A stretch of 64,000 nucleotides of DNA from Anaerolineales bacterium (GTDB lineage: Bacteria; Chloroflexota; Anaerolineae; Anaerolineales; E44-bin32), in assembly GCA_034417075.1 (NCBI GenBank), contig DAOULU010000006.1:138283-202282 (forward strand). The letters are read 5' to 3'. The notes below the pieces were generated by a model. That model made no database searches. It saw nothing but the letters and a program-made list of their open reading frames with translations, and was not told the origin of the DNA. Shown piece after piece: positions 13,107 through 28,809 of this stretch. Within the stretch, counting starts at the first letter, position 1, and every line of letters begins with the position of its first letter. The position numbers were made by a program, and so were the translations under genes.

Positions 13107-15743
13107 ATGAAGCAATATTCACTCCTCATACAACTGCTCCTCTTATCTACTGTTGTCGTGATGGCTGCAGCATTCACTCCGATCCCGGCTAACGCAAATG
13201 GTGATTGGATCGTGGTTAACACAGAAAACGATATGGACGATGGCGTCTGTGACAATACTCATTGTTCTCTCCGCGAAGCTATCAACCACGCCAACCTTCT
13301 TCCAGGGAAGCAAGGGATTTCCTTCAATATCCCGAATTCCAATCCCTTCGCCATTATCCAGGCGTGCGGTCCACTGCCAGATATCACGGACCCGGTCCTC
13401 ATCGACGGTACGTGGCCGCTCGGACCGAATGCGCCCCCCCGAGTCGTGATCCGACCCGACAAGAGACGAGAATGCCCCATAACTCCTCCCAGCCATGGAT
13501 TCTGGATCGTCGCTAATAACGTCACGATCCGCAACCTCAGCATGGTCAATTTCTTCAGCTTTCAGGCATTGGTATCCGGCGCCATCATCGTCGATACTGG
13601 AGCAAATGCAGTCATCGAAAACAACCTGCTCGGCATCTACCCCACCGGTTTCGTTCAAGGCAATTACAACGCCATTTATTTGAATGACGATCACCACACT
13701 GTACGGGACAATGTAATCTCCGGTAACTGGAATGGCATCCAGGTTCGCGGCGCGGATGTAACCATCCAGGGGAATTTTATCGGCACCGATATCTCCGGGA
13801 CTACAAGTAATTTTTCTCTACGCAATGCAATTGGAGTGTTTTTAACACTTTGGAGTGAGGCGAGTGTCATCGGTGGCGTCAATCCCGGTGAGATGAATTT
13901 GATCTCCAACAACGGAACCGGTATCGATGTCACATCCTCCCATAACACGATAATTGGGAATCAGATCGGAACGGACATTTCTGGAACTCTGGATCTGGGA
14001 AATTCCAATGGGATCATCATAACAGGACCCCGCAATACCATCGGTGGTGACCTGCCTGGAGAGGGCAATCTGATATCAGGTAATTCCATGGCAATTAGCA
14101 TCGGCACTGCCGGGGATAACAATATTATTCAAGGCAACTTGATCGGCACCGACTTCAGCGGCACCCAGCCCCTGGCAAATGCACAAGATAATTATCGCGG
14201 CATGGTTATCTTAGGTCAGGACAATTTGGTCGGCGGACTCAATGCTGGCGAGAACAATCTGATCGCCTACATTATTCACGAAGGCATTGAATTCGGAATG
14301 GATGCCAGCGACAATCAAATCCGCGGGAACACGATCATCCATAACGAACTCGGTGTGCTTGTTAAAACAGATCTCTGGGACACCGCGTTGAGAAACACAC
14401 TGACACAAAATGAGATTCACTCCAACTCTGGGTTGGGAATCGATCTCGAACCAGCCGGTGTTTCACCTAACGACCCCGGCGACACGGACAACGGCGGGAA
14501 TACGGTGCTCAACTTCCCGGAATTCAGTGTCAGCATGAATGCTGCCGCAGGAACGGCATGCCCCGAGTGTGTCGTTGAGCTCTTCTTTTCCGACAATGAC
14601 CCTTCAGGGTACGGCGAAGGTGAAACATTCATCGACAGCACCATTGCCGATACAAACGGCAACTTCATGATCCCATTAAATCTACCCATCTCCGGCTGTT
14701 CCCGTTTTTCCGCCACAGCGACGGACCTCCTGGGAAACACCTCCGAGTTTTCCGAAAACGTGGAGTTTGGTTTTTGTCTGGCGGTTGATCCCTGGGTGAT
14801 TCTCACTCCCTTGGTTGCTTTTGGGTTAAGCCTGGGAATCGGCTTCTTTGTTGGACGAAAACCCAACATCAATGGGCGCACAGCACTCGCTGCAGCCGGC
14901 GCTGCTGGTTTCGCTCTCGCGGGGACACTGTTTGTGATCTTGAGAGGACCCTCCGAACTTCCTCCACAGGGATCCGAAGACTCCGAAGTTTGGTCCAGAC
15001 TGCAATCCTGCAGTGAATATCTCGAACCGGATAGTATATCCCCCACCGAAGGGATGCTTTTCGAGCTGGAAGACGACCCCCTGTTCACCTGGGCTCCGCT
15101 CGACAACCTACCCCCGGGTTCGATCCGCTGGACGGTTGAACTGGCGAAACTTTCGGATTCACCGGAAAGCCAGAGCACGAGCGAGGCTCATCTGGCATTT
15201 TCGACATTCGGCATTCAACCCGATCCCGCAACAATCTTTAAATGGCGCCTCAGCGGAGAATTAGCCGATAAGGACGGTGGTGAATGGCGCTTCTTCTGCT
15301 CGCCCACAGACTGGCTGCCGTTTCAGATCGGCTTGCTTCCGGTCGTAAAGGCACCCTCCGATACACCCGAACCGTCACCCACACCCACTCCGACTCCAAC
15401 TTCTCAGTATTGCGTCTATACGGCGATCGAAAACGCCAATTGCCGCAGCAGTGATTACAAAGAATCGGAGCAAATCGCCATCCTCATGCAAGGTGAAAGT
15501 GCAGAACTCTTGAGCCTCAATCCCGAATTCACCCATGGACAGTTTTTACTCGATCAGGAGTTATGCTGGATCTGGCTCGGTTTGTTGGATGGGCCCGAAA
15601 ATCCCTTCGGCACGTGCAGCGTGCCGATCATCGATCCCGCACCGGCTTGCACGTCGGAACTGGATGAGCAAGCCTGTATACTCGCCGGCGGACAGATCAG
15701 TGAAACGCGCACGACAGCACCTTACTGCGTCTGCCCGGATTGA
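13107..15743 (+). CDS. Surface protein paralog 1 of 4: signal peptide, CSLREA motif, parallel beta-helix repeats, internal TM hairpin, C-terminal 8-Cys domain
   Basis: 878 aa. Signal peptide MKQYSLLIQLLLLSTVVVMAAA, VVNTENDMDDGVCDNTHCSLREAINHAN, many NxIxGNxIGTDxSGT repeats, GIDLEPAGVSPNDPGDTDNGGNTVLNFP, ATATDLLGNTSEFSEN. Two hydrophobic helices flank RKPNINGR. PT linker, then the Cys-rich end ..YCVCPD. Confidence 0.9.
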   Translation: MKQYSLLIQLLLLSTVVVMAAAFTPIPANANGDWIVVNTENDMDDGVCDNTHCSLREAINHANLLPGKQGISFNIPNSNPFAIIQACGPLPDITDPVLIDGTWPLGPNAPPRVVIRPDKRRECPITPPSHGFWIVANNVTIRNLSMVNFFSFQALVSGAIIVDTGANAVIENNLLGIYPTGFVQGNYNAIYLNDDHHTVRDNVISGNWNGIQVRGADVTIQGNFIGTDISGTTSNFSLRNAIGVFLTLWSEASVIGGVNPGEMNLISNNGTGIDVTSSHNTIIGNQIGTDISGTLDLGNSNGIIITGPRNTIGGDLPGEGNLISGNSMAISIGTAGDNNIIQGNLIGTDFSGTQPLANAQDNYRGMVILGQDNLVGGLNAGENNLIAYIIHEGIEFGMDASDNQIRGNTIIHNELGVLVKTDLWDTALRNTLTQNEIHSNSGLGIDLEPAGVSPNDPGDTDNGGNTVLNFPEFSVSMNAAAGTACPECVVELFFSDNDPSGYGEGETFIDSTIADTNGNFMIPLNLPISGCSRFSATATDLLGNTSEFSENVEFGFCLAVDPWVILTPLVAFGLSLGIGFFVGRKPNINGRTALAAAGAAGFALAGTLFVILRGPSELPPQGSEDSEVWSRLQSCSEYLEPDSISPTEGMLFELEDDPLFTWAPLDNLPPGSIRWTVELAKLSDSPESQSTSEAHLAFSTFGIQPDPATIFKWRLSGELADKDGGEWRFFCSPTDWLPFQIGLLPVVKAPSDTPEPSPTPTPTPTSQYCVYTAIENANCRSSDYKESEQIAILMQGESAELLSLNPEFTHGQFLLDQELCWIWLGLLDGPENPFGTCSVPIIDPAPACTSELDEQACILAGGQISETRTTAPYCVCPD

Positions 15744-15835
15744 AATACGCAGACGTAGGGAACGATGGACTCCGAAGCGGGCATTTCCTCACTGGGGAGG
15801 TGTTCGAAAGCAAGTCAGAAGGTTTGGAGATGAAA

Positions 15836-18565
15836 ATGAATAAGAAGCGGATCTTGTACCTTACCCTCGCCGTAACACTGTCGCTCTTCGCCCTCGTCAT
15901 GCAGCCCATGGCTTCCGGCTACGCCGGAGGGGGCATTATCGAGGTCAACACGATAGACGACACCGACGACGGCGTCTGCGATGCGGCACACTGCTCGCTG
16001 CGCGAGGCGATCAACTGGGCCAACACCATGGCCGGTACACCGACGATCACCTTCGATATCGCCGGTTCCGGCCCGCACGTCATCGACCTGTGCCATGCGC
16101 TGCCGCAGCTGACCAGTTCGGGCACGACCATCGACGGCACCACAGAACCGAGCTACACCGGAACCCCCGTTGTCGTCGTGCACCCGGCATTTCTTTCCAA
16201 TACCCCGCCGCCGCTGACCCACGTCCCGCCGTGTATTCCGCCTTCGGTCGGTCTGTGGATCGAAACCGACGACATCACCGTGAGAGGCTTGAGCATCGTC
16301 GGTTTTCGCCAGACATGGCCGGCGATCGCCGCCGGGATCGTGGTCGCCAACGGCAGCAACAACCTTATCGATGCAAATTACATCGGTCTGGACGCCAGCG
16401 GCTCACCGGACGGTAACCGCGACGGGATTCTCCTCGGTGCAACCGGCCAAGAGGTTCGTCACAACACCATCTCCGGCAACGACACCGGCATCCACGTCCG
16501 CGCCGGCGAACAAACAATAAACGCTAACCGCATCGGCACGGATTTCTCCGGCAGCACGAGCGGAACCGGAATGGGCAACTACCGCGGTATCCGTATCGAG
16601 CCGGCCGCGGATGCCAACCACATCGGATCCTCCGATCCCATACATAAGAACGTAATCTCCGGCAATACCGCCGTCGGGATCGAGGTGGAATCCGCCGACA
16701 ACATTATCCAGGGTAACTACATCGGCTGCAACATCAGCGGCGATACCGCATTGGGCCAACAGGAAGGTGTGGTGCTCGGAGGCAACAGCAATCTTCTCGG
16801 TGGGAATAATGCCGGTGATGGCAACCTGATCTCCGGAAACGACATCGATGGCGTGATCGTTGGTGGAAGCGGTCACCAAATCCTAGGCAACACGATCGGA
16901 GCAGACATCAACGGCCTCCCATTGGGAAATCAAAATGGCATCTTCAGCATACAAAGTGACAATGTCATCATCGGCACAAACGCCACTGCCTCTGGCAACC
17001 TGATCGCGCATAACAGCTTACATGGCGTGATGCTCTTGGCGAGATCCAAAACTTACCACATCGCCGGCAACACGATCACCCAGAATGGTGGTGACGGCAT
17101 TATATTGGGAACATTTTCCATGAGTCCCGATGTCCCCGAGCAAATCACCATCAACCGCAACAGCATATACGATAACGGAGGCCTGGGGATCGACCTTTAT
17201 CCAGCCGGTGTTACACCCAACGACCCGGGCGATGCGGATTCAGGCCCCAACACGCTGCTCAATTTCCCCGAGCTCAGCCAGGTGACGTCCACCAATGCAC
17301 AGGGAACCGTCTGCGCTAGCTGCCGTGTGGAGGCTTTCATCGCCGACGGCGATCCCACAGGATACGGCGAAGGCATGACCTTCGTCGGGGAAGCGTTCGC
17401 TGACTCCTCCGGCAGCTTGAGCCTTCCACTCGACGTGAACCTGGTTTCCACCTGCGATCTGATCACGACGCGAGCGACAGACGGGGCCGGCAACAGTTCC
17501 GAATTCTCGGAAAACATGCGCGTTTCGCCCTGCTTCACGCTACGTCGGCCGTGGTTATTTGCACCACCCATCCTGCTGGGTCTGCTGGGGTTGCTCGGAG
17601 GCCGCCGCGCAGGACGCGGCAAACCCGGGCTGGCTTCCGCCGCGGGCGGCGCTGCAATCGGCGTCGGGATCGGCGGCGGACTCATCCTCCTAGCGATCGT
17701 ACTGCCCTTTGTGCACATCGAAAAACCACAGGAAGACGTAGGCTTACCCGCCGTGCAGCAGCCCTGCGATCGTTTCCTCGATCCGGCCGGGCTCTCGCCT
17801 GCCGATGGATCGATATTCGAGATCGATGACAACGGCTGGGAATTTACTTGGAGTCCATCACCCGAGATGCCAGATGGAGAGTTCCGCTGGCTCGTCGAGC
17901 TGGCGTCAGCGGACGGCAGCATACAGCAATTGACGACCACCGGAAATTCGCTGCCCTTCCTGTCCTTCGATACTGAAATCTCACAAGGCGCCGTGTTCTC
18001 CTGGCGCCTCAGCGCCGAACAGGCCATCCCCGGTACGGACCGCTGGGAGCCCTTCTGTCGGCAGTTCGCTTGGCACACCTTCCAGTTCGGCGAGCGCCCA
18101 CCGCTCAACGCCCCACCCTGGACGCCCGACGAGTGGAGTGAACCCGAAGACACGCCGACACCAACTTCAACTCCCACAGAAACTCCAACGCCGACTCCCG
18201 AGGAATTGGTTTGTGTGTACGAGGCGCTGCAGAATTCAAACTGCCGCGCCAGCGACTACGCAGAAGCGTTACAAATTTCGATCCTCATGCAGGGCGAGAC
18301 GGCCGAACTGCTAGCCTTGAACCCCGAGTTCTCCTACGGCCAATTCAACCTCGGCCAGGGCGCGTGTTGGATTTGGCTTGGCTTGCTGGACGGACCGGAA
18401 AATCCATTCGATACCTGTGACGTACCGGTCGTCGATCCGCCCTCACCGCCTACGGAGACACCGCCCGCCTGCACACCGGACCTGGATGAAGAAGCGTGTG
18501 TGCTGAGTGGTGGCACGTGGTCGGAGGGCGTGAGTCGAGCGCCCTATTGTGTGTGTCCCGAGTGA
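15836..18565 (+). CDS. Surface protein paralog 2 of 4 (same architecture)
   Basis: Colinear with paralog 1 (HCSLREAINWAN, GIDLYPAGVTPNDPGDADSGPNTLLNFP, GNSSEFSEN, loop GGRRAGRGKPG, end YCVCPE). GGAG lies 6 nt before ATG 15836. ATG 15830 and the TTG-extended ORF from 15740 are less likely starts. Confidence 0.88.
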   Translation: MNKKRILYLTLAVTLSLFALVMQPMASGYAGGGIIEVNTIDDTDDGVCDAAHCSLREAINWANTMAGTPTITFDIAGSGPHVIDLCHALPQLTSSGTTIDGTTEPSYTGTPVVVVHPAFLSNTPPPLTHVPPCIPPSVGLWIETDDITVRGLSIVGFRQTWPAIAAGIVVANGSNNLIDANYIGLDASGSPDGNRDGILLGATGQEVRHNTISGNDTGIHVRAGEQTINANRIGTDFSGSTSGTGMGNYRGIRIEPAADANHIGSSDPIHKNVISGNTAVGIEVESADNIIQGNYIGCNISGDTALGQQEGVVLGGNSNLLGGNNAGDGNLISGNDIDGVIVGGSGHQILGNTIGADINGLPLGNQNGIFSIQSDNVIIGTNATASGNLIAHNSLHGVMLLARSKTYHIAGNTITQNGGDGIILGTFSMSPDVPEQITINRNSIYDNGGLGIDLYPAGVTPNDPGDADSGPNTLLNFPELSQVTSTNAQGTVCASCRVEAFIADGDPTGYGEGMTFVGEAFADSSGSLSLPLDVNLVSTCDLITTRATDGAGNSSEFSENMRVSPCFTLRRPWLFAPPILLGLLGLLGGRRAGRGKPGLASAAGGAAIGVGIGGGLILLAIVLPFVHIEKPQEDVGLPAVQQPCDRFLDPAGLSPADGSIFEIDDNGWEFTWSPSPEMPDGEFRWLVELASADGSIQQLTTTGNSLPFLSFDTEISQGAVFSWRLSAEQAIPGTDRWEPFCRQFAWHTFQFGERPPLNAPPWTPDEWSEPEDTPTPTSTPTETPTPTPEELVCVYEALQNSNCRASDYAEALQISILMQGETAELLALNPEFSYGQFNLGQGACWIWLGLLDGPENPFDTCDVPVVDPPSPPTETPPACTPDLDEEACVLSGGTWSEGVSRAPYCVCPE

Positions 18566-18647
18566 GAGGCTGCATGCGCATTCAGCGAACGGGAATTTCC
18601 GCAGTGAATAGACACGTGAAACCATCCTGCCCCGTAGGAGGTGCAAG

Positions 18648-21509
18648 ATGAATTCTCGATGGATGAAAAAGCTTGGATTGTGCGTATTGAGCACGTTGTG
18701 GCTCTTGATGTTCACCACACCTATGGCGACACAGGCTGGTGGTGGCGTGTTCGTCGTCAACACCACCGACGATCTGGACGACGGCACCTGTGACGCCACA
18801 CACTGCTCGCTGCGCGAAGCGATCAACGCGGTCAACACCTATGCGGGCACGCAGTACATCTACTTTGATATCCCCGGTCCAGGACCGCACGAGATCATGC
18901 TATGCTCGATGCTTCCATCCTTGAGCGACGACGGAACGTTGATCGACGGCACTTCGGAGCCCGATTATGGCGGCACGGTACCTGTGGTCGTGATCAAGCC
19001 GGGGATATTCAACGTGTCTTCCTATCCTGGCTGCACGCCACCACCCATCGGGATCTGGATCGCCGCCAGCGACATAACCGTGACCGGCCTGAGCATCATC
19101 GGTTTCAGGAGTCCTTCCGCATCCATCGCCGGCGGGATCGTGACTCACATGGGCTCGAACGTCACCATCCAGTGGAACTACATCGGCCTGGATCCCTCCG
19201 GAACTCCCGTCGGGAATCGAGACGGGATCCTGATAGGCTCCGAGGCGTCGCAGATCTATTCCAACCGCATCTCGGGCAACGTCATCGGCATTCACGTCTT
19301 CCGCAGCGACCACATCATCCGCTTGAACTACATCGGAACCGATCCCACGGGCACGTCGACCAGTCCTACGCTGAAAAATTCCGTCGGCATCCTGGTGGAC
19401 AATCCTTCTAGCAACGTGCATATCGGAGGCCCGAATCCCGCCTGGATGAACCTCATTTCGGGCAACGACACGGGCGTCCAAGTCGTTACGGACGGTAACT
19501 TCGTGACCAACAATCGCATCGGCGCAGACGCCAGCGGCAGCGCAGGCTTGGGCAATGACACCGGCGTATGGGTCACGGGCAACGGGAACCAAATCGAAGG
19601 CAATCAGGTCAGTGACAGCCAGATCGGCGTGCTGCTGGCCGGAAACAATAATCAAGTCTCCGGCAACTTCATTGGTACGGACGCAAGCGGCGACCTGGCG
19701 TTAGGCAACGACACCGGCGTCCACATCATCGGCAGTGATAACGTCATCGGCGGCGAGATTCCGATCATGCTCGTGCCGGGCAGCACGGCAGGAAACATCA
19801 TCTCCGGAAATGACACGGGCATCTTCCTCGGCCCGAACGCACAGAACAACTACATTAAAGGCAACAAGATCGGTGCCGGCAACAGCCCCGACTCGAGTCT
19901 GCCCAACACTACAGGCATCCTGCTCGATGGCGCCGACAACAACACGATCGGAGGTATCTATCTACCCATGGAAGCCAACTGGGTGATGCACAATATCCAG
20001 GACGGCATCCAGTTCATCACCACCGCCAGCGACAACCTGGTTCAAAACAATTACATCGCCTGGAACGACCGGGGCATCACCGCCGGCGCCACGACCGGTA
20101 CGTCGATCCAGAATACCTTTCACTACAATAACATCTACTATAACGATCAACTCGGTATCGACCTCTTCCCCTGGGGCGTGACCCCCAATGATCCGGGTGA
20201 CGCTGACAGCGGCGCCAATAATCTACAAAATTTCCCCGTGATCAGTTCGGCTACGACCACGACAGCTCAGGGGACCGCCTGTCTGGGCTGCACGGTGGAG
20301 ATTTTCGAAAGCGAAGAGGATCCCTCCGGATACGGTGAGGGCATATCACCTATCGGTGAAAGCCTTACTGACTCCTCAGGAAATTTCAGCATCAGTGTCG
20401 ATCCGCTCTCTACCGCAGGTGTCTGTGATTACGTAACCGCCACGGCGACCGACGCAAACGGCAACACCTCCGAATTTGCAGAGAACTTCCTGATCGGACC
20501 GTGCTTCACGTTCTCACCCCAACTTTTACTCTTCCTGGGTGTGGTTTTCGTGTTCGGTGGTGGGGCCGCCGGCGGGAGGCTCGGACGCGGTCGCGGCACG
20601 CGGCCAGGCCTGGGAACCGCTGCTGGCGCCGCGCTGGGCGGCGTGATCGGTGCCGGTCTGCTCCTCGCAACCTCCTTCATTCCAATTTTCCGTCTACCAC
20701 CAGAAGAGGAACATGTGGTCTCCGATGGCCTGACAGCGCTCGTCCCCTCCTGTAATGCCTACCTCGATCCGCAGGCATTCGTGCCGCAAGATGGCGCGAT
20801 CGTGCTCGACGAAAACTTCGACTTCGCATGGTCCTGGTTGAACGAGCCTTCGAACGGACGGTTCCGCTGGAGCCTGGATTTGAACGGGCCCGACGATTCC
20901 GGCCAGCAAACGACGGAGGATACTTCGCTTCCCTTCACTGCGTTTGGTTTCGCGGTCGACGACGGGGATCGATTCATCTGGCGACTGACTGGCGAGCAAT
21001 TCGACGACTCTTCCGCAGAATGGAAACCCTTCTGTGCACCATCGGCGTGGCTAACGTTCCAAATCGGACTTTCACCATTGCTGGCGCCACCGTGGACACC
21101 GGAAACGCCGGAAGAACTACCTCCGACGCCCACGAGCACACCCGAGTCTCCTGCGGGAGTCTGTCTGTACACAGCGGTACGTAACAGCAACTGCCGCGCC
21201 AGCGACTATCCGGAGTCGCTGCAGATCGATATCCTCATGCAGGGGGAATCGGCCGAACTCCTGGCCTTGAATCCCGAGTTCACCCACGGTAAATTCGAGC
21301 TCGATCACGGTCAGTGCTGGATCTGGCTGGGATTGCTGGAAGGTCCCGATAACCCATACGGCACGTGCAACGTCCCGGTCATCGATCCGCCGCCGCCACC
21401 GACCGCAACGCCACAAACCTGCACTGCGGATTTAGACGAGGACGCTTGCATCGCAAGTGGAGGCACCTGGTCGGTGACGGGCGCTGCGGGATGTGTATGC
21501 CCGGAGTGA
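18648..21509 (+). CDS. Surface protein paralog 3 of 4 (same architecture)
   Basis: 953 aa. SD AGGAGGTG upstream. HCSLREAINAVN, GIDLFPWGVTPNDPGDADSGANNLQNFP, ATATDANGNTSEFAEN, loop GGRLGRGRGTRPG, end GCVCPE. Confidence 0.9.
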   Translation: MNSRWMKKLGLCVLSTLWLLMFTTPMATQAGGGVFVVNTTDDLDDGTCDATHCSLREAINAVNTYAGTQYIYFDIPGPGPHEIMLCSMLPSLSDDGTLIDGTSEPDYGGTVPVVVIKPGIFNVSSYPGCTPPPIGIWIAASDITVTGLSIIGFRSPSASIAGGIVTHMGSNVTIQWNYIGLDPSGTPVGNRDGILIGSEASQIYSNRISGNVIGIHVFRSDHIIRLNYIGTDPTGTSTSPTLKNSVGILVDNPSSNVHIGGPNPAWMNLISGNDTGVQVVTDGNFVTNNRIGADASGSAGLGNDTGVWVTGNGNQIEGNQVSDSQIGVLLAGNNNQVSGNFIGTDASGDLALGNDTGVHIIGSDNVIGGEIPIMLVPGSTAGNIISGNDTGIFLGPNAQNNYIKGNKIGAGNSPDSSLPNTTGILLDGADNNTIGGIYLPMEANWVMHNIQDGIQFITTASDNLVQNNYIAWNDRGITAGATTGTSIQNTFHYNNIYYNDQLGIDLFPWGVTPNDPGDADSGANNLQNFPVISSATTTTAQGTACLGCTVEIFESEEDPSGYGEGISPIGESLTDSSGNFSISVDPLSTAGVCDYVTATATDANGNTSEFAENFLIGPCFTFSPQLLLFLGVVFVFGGGAAGGRLGRGRGTRPGLGTAAGAALGGVIGAGLLLATSFIPIFRLPPEEEHVVSDGLTALVPSCNAYLDPQAFVPQDGAIVLDENFDFAWSWLNEPSNGRFRWSLDLNGPDDSGQQTTEDTSLPFTAFGFAVDDGDRFIWRLTGEQFDDSSAEWKPFCAPSAWLTFQIGLSPLLAPPWTPETPEELPPTPTSTPESPAGVCLYTAVRNSNCRASDYPESLQIDILMQGESAELLALNPEFTHGKFELDHGQCWIWLGLLEGPDNPYGTCNVPVIDPPPPPTATPQTCTADLDEDACIASGGTWSVTGAAGCVCPE

Positions 21510-21582
21510 AACCGATTCGAGAAGATAACGCCATGGAGTCGATCGAAAACCGCAGCCAGAGATTGATGTAAGGGGTACTTTG

Positions 21583-24183
21583 ATGAGAACTCGCAAACAT
21601 GTTTCCCGAGCCTGGCTAGCCCTGTGCCTGCTGGCGATGATGACACTTGCTTTTCCGATCACCGCGGAGGCCAGCACCTTCGTCGTCAACACGGTCGACG
21701 ATCTCGACGACGGAAACTGCGACGCCGATCATTGCTCTCTGCGCGAGGCGATCAATGCCGCCAATGCCAACCCCGGTGCGGACACGATTGCCTTCGACAT
21801 CTTCGGCGCCGGGCCACACGTGATCAAACTGTGCAGCCTGCTGCCCATACTCACCGACGGCGGGACGACGATTGACGGCACGACGGAACCCAGTTATGCC
21901 GGGACGCCCGTCGTTACTTTAACGCCCTCTGCGGATCCGAGTTGTACCCGACCGCACATCGGCCTATGGATCCAATCCGACGGGAACGTGATCCGTGGGC
22001 TGCACACCATCGACTTCATGCATCCAACACTGCAGCACGAATCCGCCATCTACATCGAGCGCGGCGACGGAAACCTGATCGAGTTAAATCACATCGGCTA
22101 TCAACCTACCTGTTCGCTTTTCAACACACAATACGGTGTCCGCATCGACATGGACGCCGGAAACCAGCGCATTCTCAAAAACGTATTCAACTGTAACGGA
22201 ACGGCAATCGATATCTGGGCTGGCAGCCACGTGATCCGGGACAACCTCATCGGCGTCGATCCCTCCGGCACTACGGCCATCCTCAACGGTCTGGGCATCT
22301 ACGTCTACGAAACCGCCCACGGCTCGACCATTCAGGATAACGTGGTATCGGGCAACATCAGCGCCATGGTAGTCAATTCGGACGACAACAAGATCCTGGG
22401 AAACCGCGTTGGTACGGATTGGTCGACGAACATAGCCATCCCCAATCAAGGCGGCATCAAGGTGAACGGCGATCACAACCGCGTCGGCGGCACGAATCCC
22501 GGCGAGGCAAACATCATCGCCGCCAACACCAGCATTGGTCTTGATCTGTACTGCGGCGCGGAATACAACCAGGTGTATGGCAATATCATCGGCACCAATC
22601 TTTCGGGAACCATCATCATGGGCAACCAGTACGGTGTCACCATTATGGGGAACACGAACATCATCGGGGGTATCGGCTCAGGCGAAGCAAACCGCATCCT
22701 CTTCAGCCAGGAAGCCGGGCTCAGCTTGTACGCTTTGGCGCACAAAAACCGCATCATTGGAAACGAGATCGCTTACGGCCACACGCAGGGCATTCTGGGA
22801 ACGAGTTCGATGGGCTTTCCCGAATCCAACACCTTCAGCCGAAACAGCATCCATCACAATCGTGCCCTGGGAATCGATTTGGAACCTGCGGGCGTCACGC
22901 CAAATGATCCGGGAGACGCGGATTCCGGCCCCAACACACTGCTGAACTTTCCCGTGCTCCAATCCGCCAACGTGAACACGGCCGAAGGAGACGCCTGCCC
23001 GGGCTGTACCGTGGAGATCTTCATCGCCGATTCGGGCAAAGGCGCATTCGGCGAAGGTATGAACTTCGCGGGAAGCGGCAACGCCGATCCGAGCGGTCAT
23101 TTCTCGATCCCGTTAAGCGGGGTCGGTTTCTGCGATCCGCTCACCGCCACCGCCACTGACGGCGCAGCCAACACCTCCGAGTTTGCCAAGAACATCCTGG
23201 CCAGCTGCCTGACGCTCGTATTCCCTTGGCCCGATCTCCTTTTGCTGGCGTTCATTTTTGCTGGCGCCCTGGGCAACGGGCGTCGCGGCCGAGGTAGATC
23301 GCCGGGTCGATATGCCGCCATCGGCGGCGCTGCTGGCGCAGTATTCGGCATCGCCCTGCTGACCCTGGGCAGTGCGCTTCCTAACATGCACTTGGAATTG
23401 CTCCCTCCAAAAGGGGAACCGAAGAGTGAACCACTTTGCAGCGAGTTGCTTCTACCGGATGGGTACGCTCCACCGGCAGGCGCCGTGTTCCAAACCAGCG
23501 AAGACCCATTGCTTTCCTGGACGCCGGGACCCGGCGCCGCCGACGGGATCGTCTGGCAGGTAGAACTCAGTGCACCTGACGGCTCAATTTTGAATCAAAC
23601 GACTCAGGAGACAAGCATCGCCTTCAGCAGCTTCATGTTCCCCACTCAACCAGGATTTTACCGCTGGCGCATCACCGCCAGAGAGGGCAATGCCCCAGGA
23701 GCCCTGGGGAAAGCCTTATGTTCACCGACATCGTGGATGCCGCTTTCCTTCGAAGGACCACAGCGCGAGGAAACACCGGAAGAAACGCCGACATCGACCC
23801 CCACGCCGACTCCCACAGAAGAGACGTCAGCATGTGTCTACACCGCGCTGCAAAATGCCAACTGCCGGGAGAGCGACTACGTCGAATCGGATCAGATGGC
23901 CATTCTCATGCAGGGCGAAAGCGCCGAACTGTTGGCGTTGAACCCCGAGTTTACCCACGGTGAGTTCGAGGTCGATCAGCACCAATGCTGGATCTGGCTC
24001 GGGTTGCTGGACGGTCCTGAAAACCCATACGGCACATGCGACATTCCAGTCGTTGATCCGCCTCCACCGCCGACCGCGACGCCACAGATTTGCACAGAGG
24101 ATTTGAACGAGGAAGATTGCGTGGCCAGCGGCGGTGTATGGTCCGAGGGAATCACGGATCGCCTCTACTGCATCTGTCCTTAA
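21583..24183 (+). CDS. Surface protein paralog 4 of 4 (same architecture)
   Basis: HCSLREAINAANANPGADTIAFDI, GIDLEPAGVTPNDPGDADSGPNTLLNFP, ATATDGAANTSEFAKN, loop NGRRGRGRSPGR, end YCICP. ATG at 21583 (TTG at 21580 also possible). Confidence 0.9.
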   Translation: MRTRKHVSRAWLALCLLAMMTLAFPITAEASTFVVNTVDDLDDGNCDADHCSLREAINAANANPGADTIAFDIFGAGPHVIKLCSLLPILTDGGTTIDGTTEPSYAGTPVVTLTPSADPSCTRPHIGLWIQSDGNVIRGLHTIDFMHPTLQHESAIYIERGDGNLIELNHIGYQPTCSLFNTQYGVRIDMDAGNQRILKNVFNCNGTAIDIWAGSHVIRDNLIGVDPSGTTAILNGLGIYVYETAHGSTIQDNVVSGNISAMVVNSDDNKILGNRVGTDWSTNIAIPNQGGIKVNGDHNRVGGTNPGEANIIAANTSIGLDLYCGAEYNQVYGNIIGTNLSGTIIMGNQYGVTIMGNTNIIGGIGSGEANRILFSQEAGLSLYALAHKNRIIGNEIAYGHTQGILGTSSMGFPESNTFSRNSIHHNRALGIDLEPAGVTPNDPGDADSGPNTLLNFPVLQSANVNTAEGDACPGCTVEIFIADSGKGAFGEGMNFAGSGNADPSGHFSIPLSGVGFCDPLTATATDGAANTSEFAKNILASCLTLVFPWPDLLLLAFIFAGALGNGRRGRGRSPGRYAAIGGAAGAVFGIALLTLGSALPNMHLELLPPKGEPKSEPLCSELLLPDGYAPPAGAVFQTSEDPLLSWTPGPGAADGIVWQVELSAPDGSILNQTTQETSIAFSSFMFPTQPGFYRWRITAREGNAPGALGKALCSPTSWMPLSFEGPQREETPEETPTSTPTPTPTEETSACVYTALQNANCRESDYVESDQMAILMQGESAELLALNPEFTHGEFEVDQHQCWIWLGLLDGPENPYGTCDIPVVDPPPPPTATPQICTEDLNEEDCVASGGVWSEGITDRLYCICP

Positions 24184-24352: not shown

Positions 24353-25498
24353 ATGAGCCTTCCCTCAAGAATAAAATCAACCACACTCGTTTTCATACTG
24401 GTGACGAGCATCATCCTTGCGGCATGTCATTTCCCAGGAATGGGCCCCACGCCGGACTTGTTCGCCACCTCCGCTGCAGAAACCGTTTCCGCACGGCTTA
24501 CGCAACCAGTGGAACCCGGCACAGATGAGACAACAGAGCCCGAGCCGCCCGTGATCGCCACGACCGAAGCCCCACCGACAGAGGAACCCCCTACGCCAAC
24601 GACTACGCTCACCCCCACGATCACGCAGACCACAATCCCCTGCGATCGCGCCAGTTTCGTTTCGGACGTTACCATCCCCGACGGGGAGGAATTAGAACCG
24701 AACGAGAGTTTCACCAAAACCTGGCGGTTGAAAAATAACGGTTCCTGCACCTGGACCTCCAGCTACGCGCTCACTTTCGACAGCGGTGATTCGATGAGCG
24801 GACCTGCATCCAAACAGCTTACCAGTGGAACTGTAGCACCTGGCGCCACAATGGACGTCTCCGTCAATCTGACGGCGCCGAGTTCGCCGGGAACGTACAA
24901 AGGTTACTGGAAACTGCGCAACGGATCGGGAGTGAATTTCGGAATTGGAACTGGCGGCGTAAATCCTTTCTGGGTTGAAATCAAGGTCGTTCCCAACACA
25001 ACCACGGTTACCATTCCCATGAAAGAAATGGAAAGCGGACAAGTGCAGTCCACCGGCTCGACAGGCTTTGGAAGGTACGTGGGGGATAGCCACACGAATA
25101 CGTCCACACAAGCCTTCGTCAGCTTCGATATAAGTGCGATACCTTCGGACGCCATCATCACGGAGGTCACGATAAAGATTAGTAATTTCAACGATACCGG
25201 AGATCCATTTGGCGATTTGGGACCTATGTTCATCTACAAAGATGATTACGGTAGCTTGGATTCGACCGACTATGTAAGCAGCACTCCAGGGACAGGTCGG
25301 CTTATCGCCTGGAATTCAACCTCTCAATTGGGAACCACGATCCCCGACAACGACATGGTCAATGCGGTTCAGAGTAAAGTGGGTAGCAGTCGCTTTAGAG
25401 TTCGATTCCAATTCGCCAACGACACGAACAATGATAACGGCGCCGACTATCTGGAACTGGTCTCGATTGTGATCAAGGTAACCTACTACACGCCATAG
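24353..25498 (+). CDS. Lipoprotein with NBR1-like Ig domain and C-terminal beta-rich domain (cassette A)
   Basis: Lipobox ILAAC, PT/E-rich linker. The CDRASFVSDVTIPDGEELEPNESFTKTWRLKNNGSCTWTSSYALTFDSGD...PGTYKGYWKLRN pattern is typical of bacterial 'next to BRCA1'-type Ig-like domains. SD GAAGGAG upstream. Confidence 0.85.
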   Translation: MSLPSRIKSTTLVFILVTSIILAACHFPGMGPTPDLFATSAAETVSARLTQPVEPGTDETTEPEPPVIATTEAPPTEEPPTPTTTLTPTITQTTIPCDRASFVSDVTIPDGEELEPNESFTKTWRLKNNGSCTWTSSYALTFDSGDSMSGPASKQLTSGTVAPGATMDVSVNLTAPSSPGTYKGYWKLRNGSGVNFGIGTGGVNPFWVEIKVVPNTTTVTIPMKEMESGQVQSTGSTGFGRYVGDSHTNTSTQAFVSFDISAIPSDAIITEVTIKISNFNDTGDPFGDLGPMFIYKDDYGSLDSTDYVSSTPGTGRLIAWNSTSQLGTTIPDNDMVNAVQSKVGSSRFRVRFQFANDTNNDNGADYLELVSIVIKVTYYTP

Positions 25499-25831: not shown

Positions 25832-26980
25832 ATGAGCCCTCCGGCACGATTGAGAACAACACTCATTTTAATGCTCGCGATCAGTATCGTCCTATCGGCG
25901 TGCAATTTCCCCGGTATGGGTGCCACACCGGATCTGTTCGCCACATCTGCAGCGCAAACCGTCGCCGCCCGTCTCACCCAACCAGCGGGACCGGGCAATG
26001 ATGGGACCACGCCACCCGAGCCACCGCAGATTGCAACAACCGAAGCCCCTCCAACGGAGGAACCACCTACGCCCACGTCGACCATAACGCTGACGCCCAC
26101 GATCACGCAGACCACAATCCCCTGCGATCGCGCCAGCTTTATCACGGACGTCACCATCCCCGACGGAGAAGAATTGGAACCGAACGAGAGCTTCACCAAG
26201 ACCTGGCGCCTGAAAAACAACGGCTCCTGCACCTGGACCTCCAGCTATGCGCTCATTTTCGACAGCGGCGATTCCATGGGAGGACCCGCATCCAAACAGC
26301 TTACCAGCGGGACCGTTGCACCCGGTGCCATTATGGACGTCTCCGTCAACTTAACGGCGCCCAGTTCGCCGGGTACCTACAAGGGATACTGGAAACTGCG
26401 CAACGGTTCCGGGGTAAATTTCGGCATCGGTACCGGCGGCACCAATCCGTTCTATGTCGAAATCAAAGTCGTGCCCAACACGGCCACGACTACGGTTCCT
26501 CTCGTCGTTGGCGAAAGCGGTCAGGTCACGAAAAGCACCTATATCTCCGGGGATAAAATTGCCGGAGATAACGGATCGAACGATTCGTCCCAGGCTTTCC
26601 TTAGCTTCAACATCACCGGAATCCCGTCGGATGCCGTCATTACGGAAGTCGTCATCGATCTCGGTGACTTCACCGTGATCGGGACGCCGTTCTCAGCTTT
26701 GGGGCCACTGTTTATCTACAAGGATGATTATGGCGGTTTGGATGCCTCCGACTTCGTCAACAGCACACCATCTTCCGGCCGACTCATAGCCTGGAATTCA
26801 ACATCAAGCTTGGGGAACGCCGTCTCGGATAACGACATGGTCAACGCCCTGCAAACCAAAGTGGGATCGAGTCGCTTCAGATTGCGTCTGCAGTTCAACA
26901 AACAAACCGACAACGATGGCGCAAGCGATCACCTGACTTTCAACACTGTGATCCTCAAAGTCACCTACTACACGCCCTGA
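25832..26980 (+). CDS. Lipoprotein with NBR1-like Ig domain and C-terminal beta-rich domain (cassette B, paralog of 24353-25498)
   Basis: Lipobox VLSAC. The N-terminal two thirds are near-identical to cassette A and the C-terminal third is clearly more diverged. SD GAAGGAG upstream. Confidence 0.85.
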   Translation: MSPPARLRTTLILMLAISIVLSACNFPGMGATPDLFATSAAQTVAARLTQPAGPGNDGTTPPEPPQIATTEAPPTEEPPTPTSTITLTPTITQTTIPCDRASFITDVTIPDGEELEPNESFTKTWRLKNNGSCTWTSSYALIFDSGDSMGGPASKQLTSGTVAPGAIMDVSVNLTAPSSPGTYKGYWKLRNGSGVNFGIGTGGTNPFYVEIKVVPNTATTTVPLVVGESGQVTKSTYISGDKIAGDNGSNDSSQAFLSFNITGIPSDAVITEVVIDLGDFTVIGTPFSALGPLFIYKDDYGGLDASDFVNSTPSSGRLIAWNSTSSLGNAVSDNDMVNALQTKVGSSRFRLRLQFNKQTDNDGASDHLTFNTVILKVTYYTP

Positions 26981-27132: not shown

Positions 27133-28809
27133 ATGGTTGCGAATGTGCTCGTAGTTGAAGAGACGGAAGAATTCGGGTCTTTGATCCGTAACGCGCTCGA
27201 AGACACCGGGCGGTATCAGGTGTCACTGGCGATGAACGCTGACGAGGCGATCGAGATCGGAGATCGGGAAAATATCCACTTGCTAATCATCGACTTCGAT
27301 CTCTCCGAAGCCGATGCACCGGCCTGTATTCAACGCATCCAATCCACCAATCCGGACATGGCCATTATCGCCATTCCGCCCAACAACGATCCACACGATC
27401 CTGCCTTTTCAAGTCTCTCAATCCGCGGCGTGCTGACGAAGCCTTTTTACCTTCCCGAACTCAACGAGATCGTCTCCGCAGCGATAGATCTGCCAACGCA
27501 GGCTGTGGAAACGGATCAGATCCGGGAATCCATCCCGCAGGAACCCCCTTTCAGCGAGGCCGCGGAACCACCAACGCCCTGGCCTAACGACGTGGATCAA
27601 GCCACGCAGCACCTCGCCAGGGTATGCGGCGATACGTCTGCCGAAGCGTTGATCCTCTTGCATCACGGCCAGCGATGGGCACAAACGGGTGGAATTACAC
27701 CGGATCAAGCCGAAGGACTTGCGGTCAAGATTGCTGAAATTGGAGTCGGCGCTGGCGCCCGTGGAGCAATCACCACCCTGACTCGTTTACCAGGCACAAA
27801 GCGGGATTGCATCCTGTATGCCAATGGTCTGATACCGAATTGGATTTTGGCGCTGGTTTATCCCTCCGGCACATCCTTCGGGATCATCCGCCGCCAGGCT
27901 GGGCACACCGCGGACAGACTCAAATACATGGACCTGGATGATCACGAGGAAGACCTCCCTCCCATACCGACGTCCGCGCCCGATACCGCACCGATTTCAG
28001 CTCGAGACGAAGAAGATACATCGTTCGATGAAATCTTCGGTGTGGAGCCAGATGCCCAGGAAATTCCGTTTTTCGAAGATCTCGACCTGCCTCCCAAACC
28101 GATCCCTGCGCCCGATACCGCACCGATTTCTGCTCGAGACGAAGAAGATACATCGTTCGATGAAATCTTCGGTGCGGAGCCAGATGCCCAGGAAATTCCG
28201 TTTTTCGAAGATCTCGATCTTCCCCCTCCGGAGCCGGATGAAACGCCAGCGAAGGTTGACGAGGACCGGATCGAAGAAGCGGACACCGCTGCAGCGATTC
28301 CGGGGGATTGGGTGCCGGACAAACCCAAACCTGAATCCCACCTGCCTTTCCTCGAAGAAGGCGCCTTCCCGAGTACGGACTCCGCATCAACAGCGCTGGA
28401 GCCCATCCCGCTGCCCGACGCGGAGTACTACCTCCCCGTCACTGCAGTGCTTGTGCCTCGGTTCCCGGAACACCGCCTGACGGGTCCCCTTGTGGAAAAT
28501 CTACAGGAATGGGTGGTTCGCCTTTGCCTGGCGTGGGATTGGCGCGCGGATGAAGTGTCGATCGAACCCGATTATCTCTGCCTGACGATGAGCATTTCCC
28601 CGGAGACGGCGCCTTCGAACGCGGTTCTCCGGCTTCGGGATGATCTATCACAGCGGATACTCAGCGCATTTCCCGAATTTGTAGACGACCTGCCTTCCCG
28701 ACGTTTTTGGGCGCGCAGCTACCTGCTGATCACCGGCGGACCACCGCCAGCGAAACGACTGCAAGAGTTCGTCGAAACCACACGCAAGAGCCAAGGGATC
28801 GAAATCTAA
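27133..28809 (+). CDS. Receiver (REC)-like domain, acidic repeat linker, C-terminal IS200/TnpA (Y1 transposase)-like domain lacking the HUH motif
   Basis: N-terminus VLVVEETEEF...HLLIIDFDL...LTKPF resembles a CheY-like receiver, with EE in place of the DD pocket. The C-terminus aligns by eye to IS200 TnpA: YLPVTAVLVPRF (YHIVFxxKYR), PDYLCLTMSISPE (xDHxHxLxxxPP), RFWARSYLLITGG (FWxRGYYxxTVG). Confidence 0.7.
   Translation: MVANVLVVEETEEFGSLIRNALEDTGRYQVSLAMNADEAIEIGDRENIHLLIIDFDLSEADAPACIQRIQSTNPDMAIIAIPPNNDPHDPAFSSLSIRGVLTKPFYLPELNEIVSAAIDLPTQAVETDQIRESIPQEPPFSEAAEPPTPWPNDVDQATQHLARVCGDTSAEALILLHHGQRWAQTGGITPDQAEGLAVKIAEIGVGAGARGAITTLTRLPGTKRDCILYANGLIPNWILALVYPSGTSFGIIRRQAGHTADRLKYMDLDDHEEDLPPIPTSAPDTAPISARDEEDTSFDEIFGVEPDAQEIPFFEDLDLPPKPIPAPDTAPISARDEEDTSFDEIFGAEPDAQEIPFFEDLDLPPPEPDETPAKVDEDRIEEADTAAAIPGDWVPDKPKPESHLPFLEEGAFPSTDSASTALEPIPLPDAEYYLPVTAVLVPRFPEHRLTGPLVENLQEWVVRLCLAWDWRADEVSIEPDYLCLTMSISPETAPSNAVLRLRDDLSQRILSAFPEFVDDLPSRRFWARSYLLITGGPPPAKRLQEFVETTRKSQGIEI
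27952..28215 (+). repeat. In-frame tandem direct repeat, 2 x 132 bp (44 aa each), plus a partial third start
   Basis: Unit 1 27952-28083 is DLPPIPTSAPDTAPISARDEEDTSFDEIFGVEPDAQEIPFFEDL. Unit 2 28084-28215 is DLPPKPIPAPDTAPISARDEEDTSFDEIFGAEPDAQEIPFFEDL. DLPPPEPD follows. Confidence 0.95.

Follow-up and report, generated by a model that had tools for sequence, protein, structure and literature searches.

Right-handed beta-helix proteins that open with a CSLREA motif (TIGR04214 with PF13229/PF05048) share a widespread ending, GIDL..NDPGD..Ig..GNTSEF, and normally stop about 10 residues past GNTSEF or add a short tail. The choice-of-anchor Q and rhombotarget-A-like proteins (NF041518, TIGR04212) are surface beta-helix proteins with an interchangeable C-terminal anchoring element; the SH3b (SH3_3) wall-binding domains of endolysins, lysostaphin-type enzymes and NlpC/P60 hydrolases are terminal modules behind a flexible linker; FN3-like surface stalk domains are beta-sandwiches of about 105 amino acids (aa) between the membrane and a distal head; and E. 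coli leader peptidase is a helical-hairpin (N-out/C-out) membrane protein. The literature on CSLREA yielded passing mentions only, and that on choice-of-anchor nothing relevant to the family described here. The window, a stretch of 64,000 nucleotides from the assembly GCA_034417075.1 of an uncultured filamentous Anaerolineales bacterium (contig DAOULU010000006.1, positions 138,283 to 202,282), contains at 13107-24183 (+ strand) four consecutive same-strand genes, W1 to W4, that encode paralogous proteins. The N-terminal arm of W1-W4 is a member of the CSLREA beta-helix class and has its GIDL..GNTSEF ending, but where the relatives stop, W1-W4 continue with a transmembrane (TM) hairpin and a second ectodomain arm of 250-330 residues. 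On balance, W1-W4 are best read as membrane-anchored, non-enzymatic, two-armed surface proteins, in which a C-terminal head would bind a common envelope polymer and the beta-helix arms would give distinct surfaces. This is not a new kind of system, its parts being known folds and its function inferred; its unusual points are that a two-helix hairpin has a large ectodomain on both flanks, that the orthologous four-gene array is conserved and that the family occurs in a small clade only.

The four open reading frames (ORFs) align colinearly across 999 columns, with W2-W4 41-44% identical to W1 (coordinates in Table 1). This agrees with an earlier note on this DNA, which had described four colinear paralogues and quoted motifs that are all present in W1-W4 and mostly invariant, although its term 'giant' is overstated for proteins of 870-950 aa. 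The shared order of parts is signal peptide, CSLREA cap, beta-helix, acidic motif plus Ig-like domain, hairpin, 2-Cys module, Pro/Thr linker and an 8-Cys end. Mean pairwise identity between the paralogues is 74% in the SH3b-like domain at the start of that end, 66% in the CSLREA cap, 60% in the Cys knot that closes the protein, 56% in the acidic motif plus Ig-like domain, 38% in the beta-helix and 36% in the 2-Cys, FN3-like module. No further family copy was found elsewhere in the window. Each gene individually is preceded by a Shine-Dalgarno-like purine run, and the likely start of W2 is ATG 15830 or 15836, behind GGAG (~909-911 aa), within an ORF-list span of 15740-18565. A promoter/terminator scan returned nothing over chance (10 against 6.8 expected; 14 against 13.5 expected), so co-transcription of W1-W4 is not established. 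Domain composition, the two folds behind the hairpin, hairpin conservation, modularity and the orthologous four-gene order were all computed directly.

The hairpin of W1-W4 lies after GNTSEF and a conserved Cys, and consists of two hydrophobic segments, TM1 and TM2 (Kyte-Doolittle 1.3-2.5 over 19 aa), on either side of a loop with 3-5 Arg/Lys. The two hydrophobic helices and basic loop described in the earlier note are conserved far beyond the window: each of the 27 family genes taken from the window and from loci in GTDB genomes has two hydrophobic segments around a loop bearing 2-5 Arg/Lys, in 26 of these 27 the 25 residues that follow TM2 carry a net negative charge, and a hairpin with a short basic loop stands just upstream of the 2-Cys module in 29 of 32 representatives (carriers of that module, less than 50% mutually identical). 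It is especially clear in a sister subfamily, subfamily B (L007-L009, L011, L012, L015), where it reads FLYPIWxFIIVVF..WRIRRxRP..TM2. TM2 is rich in Gly and Ala; 15 of the 27 genes have a GxxxGxxxG zipper there, and none has one in TM1.

An out-in-out topology, with the N-terminal arm outside, the loop inside and the C-terminal arm outside, is most likely on indirect evidence, for which there are three independent lines. A standard cleavable signal peptide precedes the N-terminal arm. The terminal head occurs without a hairpin in 53 complete proteins, 40 of which begin with a hydrophobic segment, 34 of these 40 with a lipobox-like motif, and in subfamily B the hairpin is followed by 2-5 Cys-rich acidic repeats (TIGR02232, 22-24 bits, cut-off 20.8). 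The occurrence of the head on lipoprotein-like and signal-bearing proteins, together with the disulfide-rich repeats of subfamily B, supports the earlier proposal that the post-hairpin part is extracytoplasmic, and the conserved Cys pairs and Pro/Thr linkers point the same way. If both flanks are outside, an even number of membrane spans must lie between them. The topology is nevertheless deduced from hydropathy, charge bias and comparative logic, and W2 has a short, proline-containing TM1 (Kyte-Doolittle ~1.0-1.3), both of which weigh against it. The weak TM1 of W2 would suit a single-span protein with no hairpin and a cytoplasmic C-terminal part, but this arrangement is very improbable given the two hydrophobic segments seen in all 27 genes and in 29 of the 32 representatives, the presence of the terminal domain elsewhere on lipoproteins and secreted proteins, and the ten conserved Cys, Pro/Thr linkers and Cys-rich repeats, which are unexpected in the cytoplasm. 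Under the out-in-out topology W1-W4 would resemble leader peptidase in having two TM helices, a short basic cytoplasmic loop and a large C-terminal domain exported after the second helix. The outside N-terminal tail of leader peptidase is short, however, whereas W1-W4 would first export a 530-590-residue domain via their own cleavable signal peptide.

Behind the hairpin, Pfam and NCBIfam gave no match in W1-W4, and a profile of the post-hairpin part gave no match to any PDB sequence at E <=10. The 2-Cys module was modelled from an 18-sequence alignment with AlphaFold2 (AF2) as a beta-sandwich (predicted local distance difference test score, pLDDT, 80-97). A Foldseek search matched this model to FN3 domains of contactins and to D2 domains of cytokine receptors (EpoR, IL-3R-beta), with E 1.3e-4 to 5e-3, probability 1.0 and a root-mean-square deviation (rmsd) of 3.0-3.8 A over 88-113 columns. 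No FN3 sequence model matched the module in the Pfam scan of W1-W4; as modelled, it is an FN3-like beta-sandwich at fold level only. It shares with described FN3-like stalk domains its length of about 105 aa and its place between membrane and distal head, but differs from them in being bracketed by a disulfide, in going unmatched by FN3 sequence models and, within the family, in occurring almost only directly after the hairpin.

The 8-Cys end had been taken for a single domain but comprises two units, a 75-aa 4-Cys domain and, after a short Pro-rich spacer, a ~30-aa 4-Cys knot, which together form the head. AF2 models of the head with 18 sequences were poor (pLDDT 45-65), whereas the W3 head modelled on a 59-sequence alignment from an exhaustive search reached a mean pLDDT of 91.6. 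Foldseek identified the first 60-68 residues of this model as an SH3 barrel, which superposes on Trichomonas NlpC2 (6biq; rmsd 1.5 A, 59 columns), phage phiSM101 endolysin (4krt; 1.9 A, 68 columns), a Bacillus anthracis SH3b domain (9ovi; 1.7 A, target template modelling score, TM-score, 0.78) and Clostridium perfringens CPF_0587 (2krs; 1.7 A, target TM-score 0.72). Pfam SH3_3 (PF08239) matches 10 of the 59 family members (best E 9.9e-7), and distant members resemble textbook SH3b, with stretches such as ..LNCRSGPGTGF..G.LLEGES..V.G.N.DGTW..I... Thus, the earlier statement that parts v-viii (the hairpin and all behind it) cannot be assigned to any family no longer holds for part vi, which is an FN3-like sandwich in the model, or for the first 75 aa of part viii, which has a predicted SH3b-like fold. 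The earlier note had also said that a hit of the post-hairpin region to a well-characterised family would count against its view; such a likeness exists at fold level, but no curated model recognises the sequences.

Several points count against this assignment of the head. The window heads do not match Pfam SH3_3 even at E <=1, the SH3_3 scores listed for the family (21.2-25.4 bits) lie under the gathering score of 27, the Foldseek E-values of the head are 2e-3 to 2e-2 over about 60-68 of its 119 residues, and the knot is without a fold assignment. What is claimed from the model is an SH3b-like fold and remote homology, and not membership of the curated SH3_3 family. As in SH3b wall-binding domains, the head has the fold (rmsd 1.5-1.9 A) and the position of a terminal module behind a flexible linker, and divergent family members match SH3_3. 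The differences are that the window head has four conserved Cys inside the SH3 fold, is always followed by a Pro spacer and an unmatched 4-Cys helix-plus-hairpin knot, goes unrecognised by the Pfam model and is attached to a non-enzymatic membrane protein. The SH3b-like domain is the best-conserved part of the paralogues (74%, against 38% for the helix), and it must be set against this that head similarity stems partly from sequence exchange between paralogues. When the heads of L001_1, L005_10291, L003_2509 and L003_5482 were compared with window 21162-21506, some were nearer to another paralogue than to their own orthologues: the paralogue-4 head of the metagenome-assembled genome (MAG) N4_180 is 85% identical to the W3 head, and in N14_70 the paralogue-2 head has its nearest match in that genome's own paralogue 4. 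These sequence likenesses suggest occasional gene conversion between array members.

The N-terminal arm belongs to the CSLREA/right-handed beta-helix class, as had been proposed. CSLREA_Nterm (TIGR04214, a 27-residue motif) matches all four proteins at 38-47 bits (cut-off 25), behind Sec-type signal peptides with AxA-like ends as read from the sequence. W1 matches Pfam NosD (PF05048; 28.1 bits, cut-off 23.6) and W2 matches Beta_helix (PF13229; 44.5 bits, cut-off 25.9); W3 and W4 have no Pfam beta-helix match of their own, and their region aligns colinearly with W1 and W2 throughout, with an insertion in W3 at alignment columns 440-500. The repeats are highly degenerate, with a ~60-aa super-period marked by IGxDxSG, and of the 'about a dozen' repeats counted earlier, the presence of beta-helix repeats stands and the number is approximate only. 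The motifs GIDLxPxGVTPNDPGDxDxGxNxLxNFP and ATATDxxGNTSEF are almost invariant in W1-W4. The stretch ending in the latter suggests an Ig-like domain from its sequence; its Big_6 (PF17936) scores in W1, W3 and W4 are 17.6-22.3 bits, under the gathering threshold of 27.6.

NosD and Beta_helix represent the fold class of pectate lyases and AlgG, autolysins and endolysins pair a catalytic domain with SH3b, and the best-fitting SH3b structures come from endolysin and NlpC/P60 hydrolases. W1-W4 might on these grounds be wall-targeted enzymes, with a polysaccharide-active beta-helix arm (lyase, hydrolase or C5-epimerase type) brought to the wall by the head, a reading for which one relative also offers a faint AlgG match (20.8 bits). 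That score is far under the cut-off of 700, Pfam and NCBIfam scans of W1-W4 gave no match to glycoside-hydrolase or lyase families, and in an alignment of 45 members the beta-helix has no Asp, Glu, His, Lys, Arg or Tyr conserved in at least 90%, the only residues at that level being Asn, Gly, Ile, Ser, Pro and Phe, which are ladder and turn residues. Nor does the helix have a conserved acidic or basic cluster, which argues against catalysis. A catalytic beta-helix was rejected because conserved catalytic-type residues were not found among the 45 members, and wall-targeted enzymes are unlikely overall. Separately, a very short tail, (V/L/I)(Y/F)(L/I)P(L/x)(L/I/V)x(R/K), recurs at the end of many beta-helix relatives (P0126-P0133, P0142, P0161, P0171), some of which have a Pro/Thr linker before it; examples are KVYLPLLFKGLL, KRYLPLIRR and DVFLPLLVRQSP. 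The tail is too short for a TM helix and might serve as a C-terminal sorting or anchor tag of an undescribed type; a similar IFLYPIW opens TM1 of subfamily B.

The earlier note had asked whether the post-hairpin module occurs alone, and the terminal head does occur outside hairpin proteins. The same linker and SH3b-knot head end two choice-of-anchor Q beta-helix lipoproteins (P0003, P0004; 77-86 bits), and the head is also found on many short lipoproteins with acidic disordered linkers and on proteins with other FN3-like modules. Conversely, the hairpin plus FN3 core carries a canonical SH3_3 and a different Cys tail in P0105 and P0119, an N_BRCA1_IG plus ConA-like lectin domain in place of the SH3b head in P0116, and an Ig-like domain as head in P0096 and P0109; these alternative heads are all binding modules. 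W1-W4 thus resemble the choice-of-anchor Q and rhombotarget-A-like class, but their anchor would be an internal TM hairpin and not a C-terminal sorting signal; NF041518 (a 58-residue model) has no match in W1-W4, with which P0003 and P0004 share only the C-terminal head. Subfamily B (L007, L008, L009, L011, L012, L015) has the same N-terminal arm, hairpin and head as the window family, and in place of the FN3 module and linker it has 2-5 tandem CGNGVVDxGEQCDGDDLxMCLSGQVCxNCKC repeats (TIGR02232).

Both halves of W1-W4 have free-standing counterparts. Relatives of the N-terminal arm usually end about 10 residues past GNTSEF, one of them in a single C-terminal TM helix, and the stand-alone gene P0065 (L016 507-1439) encodes an N-terminal TM helix, FN3, Pro/Thr linker and head, with an in-frame stop codon upstream of its start codon. 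The simplest history for this architecture is that a type-I-anchored beta-helix protein became fused to a type-II-anchored FN3-SH3b protein, in which case the hairpin arises automatically, and the family would then be a clear natural example of a two-ectodomain hairpin protein, apparently made by gene fusion. The small protein P0009 (170 aa, 5-kb contig) joins a signal peptide and CSLREA cap straight to an SH3b-knot head at ...CSLREAINKA|NCRSSDY...; it is either a natural deletion (recombination of ...AINxAN and ...NANCR) or an assembly collapse across the array, and was not used as evidence.

The existence of both halves as independent genes is also what would be expected if W1-W4 were precursors, with the hairpin as a maturation site and separate beta-helix and FN3-SH3b proteins after cleavage, TM2 acting as an internal signal peptide or TM1 and the Arg cluster as a sorting-signal-like element. 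TM1 and its loop resemble LPXTG, PEP-CTERM and GlyGly-CTERM sorting signals, in which an Arg cluster comes after a hydrophobic helix, and small residues follow TM2 in W3 and W4 (ATS/F, GSA/L). Sorting signals stand at the extreme C-terminus, however, whereas 250-330 residues follow in W1-W4, and NCBIfam sorting-signal models have no match in W1-W4. W1, W2 and subfamily B have no conserved AxA-like site after TM2, genes for a sortase, exosortase or rhombosortase were not found in the neighbourhood, and at least 29 divergent clusters retain the fused form, all of which makes processing rather improbable.

The family is rare and confined to a small clade of Anaerolineales. Queried with the post-hairpin part, a word-indexed search of 5.8 billion proteins returned five relatives only, and a terminal-domain profile search added fifteen; the two profile-found relatives with an NCBI organism label are both Anaerolineae/Anaerolineales MAGs, and all source annotations of family members, where given, are 'hypothetical protein'. 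An exhaustive HMMER search covering the FN3-like module and head in 1.84 billion cluster representatives gave 112 matches at E <=1e-3 and 63 at E <=1e-10, and a scan of 185,579 species genomes gave 15 loci, 14 of them in seven Anaerolineales MAGs. The fifteenth, L015 (JARRNW010000588.1, 2.4 kb), is a subfamily-B gene fragment binned with a 'Candidatus Thiodiazotropha' (Gammaproteobacteria) MAG, for which binning contamination is likelier than presence outside Chloroflexota.

Other MAGs have the family genes in tandem, with four in a row at L003, the same four across L002 and L001, and three at L004. Orthologues in these MAGs are 61-67% (W1), 80-82% (W2), 58-86% (W3) and 77-83% (W4) identical, against about 40% between paralogues, and L003, like L002 plus L001, preserves the order 1-2-3-4, which indicates that the quadruplication is old and that the four copies are non-redundant. 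The window, L003 and L004 also share a MiaB-like radical-SAM gene upstream and, downstream, two N_BRCA1_IG lipoprotein genes and then a response-regulator-Y1-transposase gene, which in the window is followed by PolA. This shared synteny includes housekeeping genes (MiaB-like, PolA) and hence reflects close relatedness and not an operon-level system, so that the dedicated cell-surface or envelope system suggested by the earlier note goes beyond the data. The idea that the array and the N_BRCA1_IG lipoproteins behind it make up a functional operon was likewise considered and rejected: the synteny reaches to MiaB and RR-Y1_Tnp, and in the window to PolA, which makes it inseparable from close relatedness. 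In L012 the subfamily-B gene follows an ABC-2 transporter gene set and not the MiaB context.

In the proposed mechanism, for which topology, ligand and role are inferred, the cleavable signal peptide would drive Sec export of the N-terminal arm (CSLREA cap, long right-handed beta-helix and Ig-like domain), TM1 would stop transfer, the Arg/Gly loop of 5-16 residues would remain cytoplasmic, and the Gly-zipper-rich TM2 would re-start export of the C-terminal arm (FN3-like stalk, flexible Pro/Thr linker, SH3b-like head and small Cys knot). The head would then bind a shared envelope polymer, peptidoglycan or another wall or outer-layer component, and the four divergent, non-catalytic beta-helix arms would offer different binding or structural surfaces. 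For the head, which is conserved, interchangeable with other binding modules and also the end of choice-of-anchor Q lipoproteins, envelope-polymer binding is the most likely role, in analogy to the SH3b modules that bind the wall. Two considerations temper this: SH3b folds bind diverse ligands, which leaves the ligand of the head putative, and nothing indicates joint action of W1-W4.

Joint action would be expected if the SH3-like heads bound the Pro-rich linkers (PPWTPE, DPPPPPT) of neighbouring paralogues and, with Gly-zipper TM2 contacts, cross-linked W1-W4 into a self-assembling, membrane-anchored layer. The best Foldseek E-values of the head are to peptide-binding Abl SH3 domains, but the Abl superpositions have an rmsd of ~4 A against 1.5-1.9 A for SH3b. 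Pro-rich segments stand beside the head in 4 of 4 proteins, the GxxxGxxxG motif of 15 of the 27 genes is confined to TM2, and the four paralogues are conserved and non-redundant; on the other hand, subfamily B is without the Pro/Thr linker and many head-bearing lipoproteins have acidic, not Pro-rich, linkers. Such a lattice is quite unlikely, and two-armed proteins with an envelope-binding head are preferred. Chloroflexota are regarded as monoderm, and filamentous ones have multilayered envelopes with layers that have no assigned molecular composition (PMC13319060), and W1-W4 would be plausible membrane-to-wall connectors in such an envelope. A bolder and doubtful extension is that hairpin, FN3 stalk, linker and head form an undescribed anchoring cassette of monoderm filamentous Chloroflexota, which would tie the cytoplasmic membrane to the wall or outer envelope layers, with the paralogues forming a hetero-oligomeric, lattice-like scaffold held by Gly-zipper TM2 contacts and head-ligand binding; if true, W1-W4 would be the first candidate structural proteins of that envelope. 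The analysis defines two unannotated sequence families, the divergent FN3-like module and the Cys-stabilised SH3b domain with its knot, and a conserved membrane-anchored set with a probable wall-binding head offers concrete candidates for localisation and binding studies.

Table 1. Coordinates of the W1-W4 array and of genes downstream, numbered from the first nucleotide of the window.
Feature	Coordinates	Strand	Basis or detail
W1, paralogue 1, 878 aa	13107..15743	+	ORF; GGGGA 6-7 nt before ATG
W2, paralogue 2, ~911 aa	15830..18565	+	ORF open from TTG 15740
W3, paralogue 3, 953 aa	18648..21509	+	ORF; AGGAGG 7 nt before ATG
W4, paralogue 4, 866 aa	21583..24183	+	likely ATG 21583; ORF list begins TTG 21580
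W1 N-terminal arm	13107..14777	+	TIGR04214 38.3 bits; NosD 28.1 bits; Big_6 below threshold
W1 signal peptide	13107-13199	+	
W1 CSLREA cap	13200-13304	+	
W1 beta-helix	13305-14426	+	
W1 acidic NDPGDxDxG motif and Ig-like domain	14427-14777	+	conserved Cys at end
W2 N-terminal arm	15833..17533	+	plan as W1; TIGR04214 40.0 bits; Beta_helix 44.5 bits
W3 N-terminal arm	18648..20504	+	plan as W1, helix ~60 aa longer; TIGR04214 42.8 bits
W4 N-terminal arm	21583..23208	+	plan as W1; TIGR04214 46.7 bits
W1 hairpin	14778..14951	+	TM1, loop GRKPNINGR, TM2; hydropathy peaks 2.25, 2.12; loop/flank charges
W2 hairpin	17534..17707	+	TM1 (short, Pro-containing), loop GGRRAGRGKP, TM2 with GxxxGxxxG
W3 hairpin	20505..20684	+	TM1, loop GGRLGRGRGTRP, TM2 with GxxxGxxxG
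W4 hairpin	23209..23382	+	TM1, loop NGRRGRGRSPGR, TM2 with GxxxGxxxG
W1 FN3-like 2-Cys module ('M')	14985..15332	+	AF2 pLDDT 80-97, model residues 1-110
W2 FN3-like module	17741..18091	+	alignment to W1 module
W3 FN3-like module	20727..21068	+	alignment to W1 module
W4 FN3-like module	23413..23751	+	alignment to W1 module
W1 head	15411..15740	+	SH3b-like 15411-15635, knot 15636-15740; Pro/Thr linker 15333-15410
W2 head	18212..18562	+	SH3b-like 18212-18436, knot 18437-18562; Pro/Thr linker 18092-18211
W3 head	21162..21506	+	SH3b-like 21162-21386, knot 21387-21506; Pro/Thr linker 21069-21161
W4 head	23833..24180	+	SH3b-like 23833-24057, knot 24058-24180; Pro/Thr linker 23752-23832
Probable lipoproteins (two)	24353-25498, 25832-26980	+	N_BRCA1_IG 95-101 bits
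Receiver-Y1 fusion	27133-28809	+	

Directly downstream of the array lie two paralogous probable lipoproteins, each with a lipobox (LAAC/LSAC), a Pro/Thr-rich linker, an N_BRCA1_IG domain (NBR1 FW-like) and an unassigned 170-aa C-terminal part, and L003 and L004 retain this pair behind their own arrays. Beyond them, a response-regulator receiver is fused to an IS200-like Y1 transposase domain, with counterparts at L003 14019-15563 and L004 13296-14858. Because its synteny is conserved in three genomes, the fusion looks like a domesticated Y1/REP-associated-type protein and not a mobile element.

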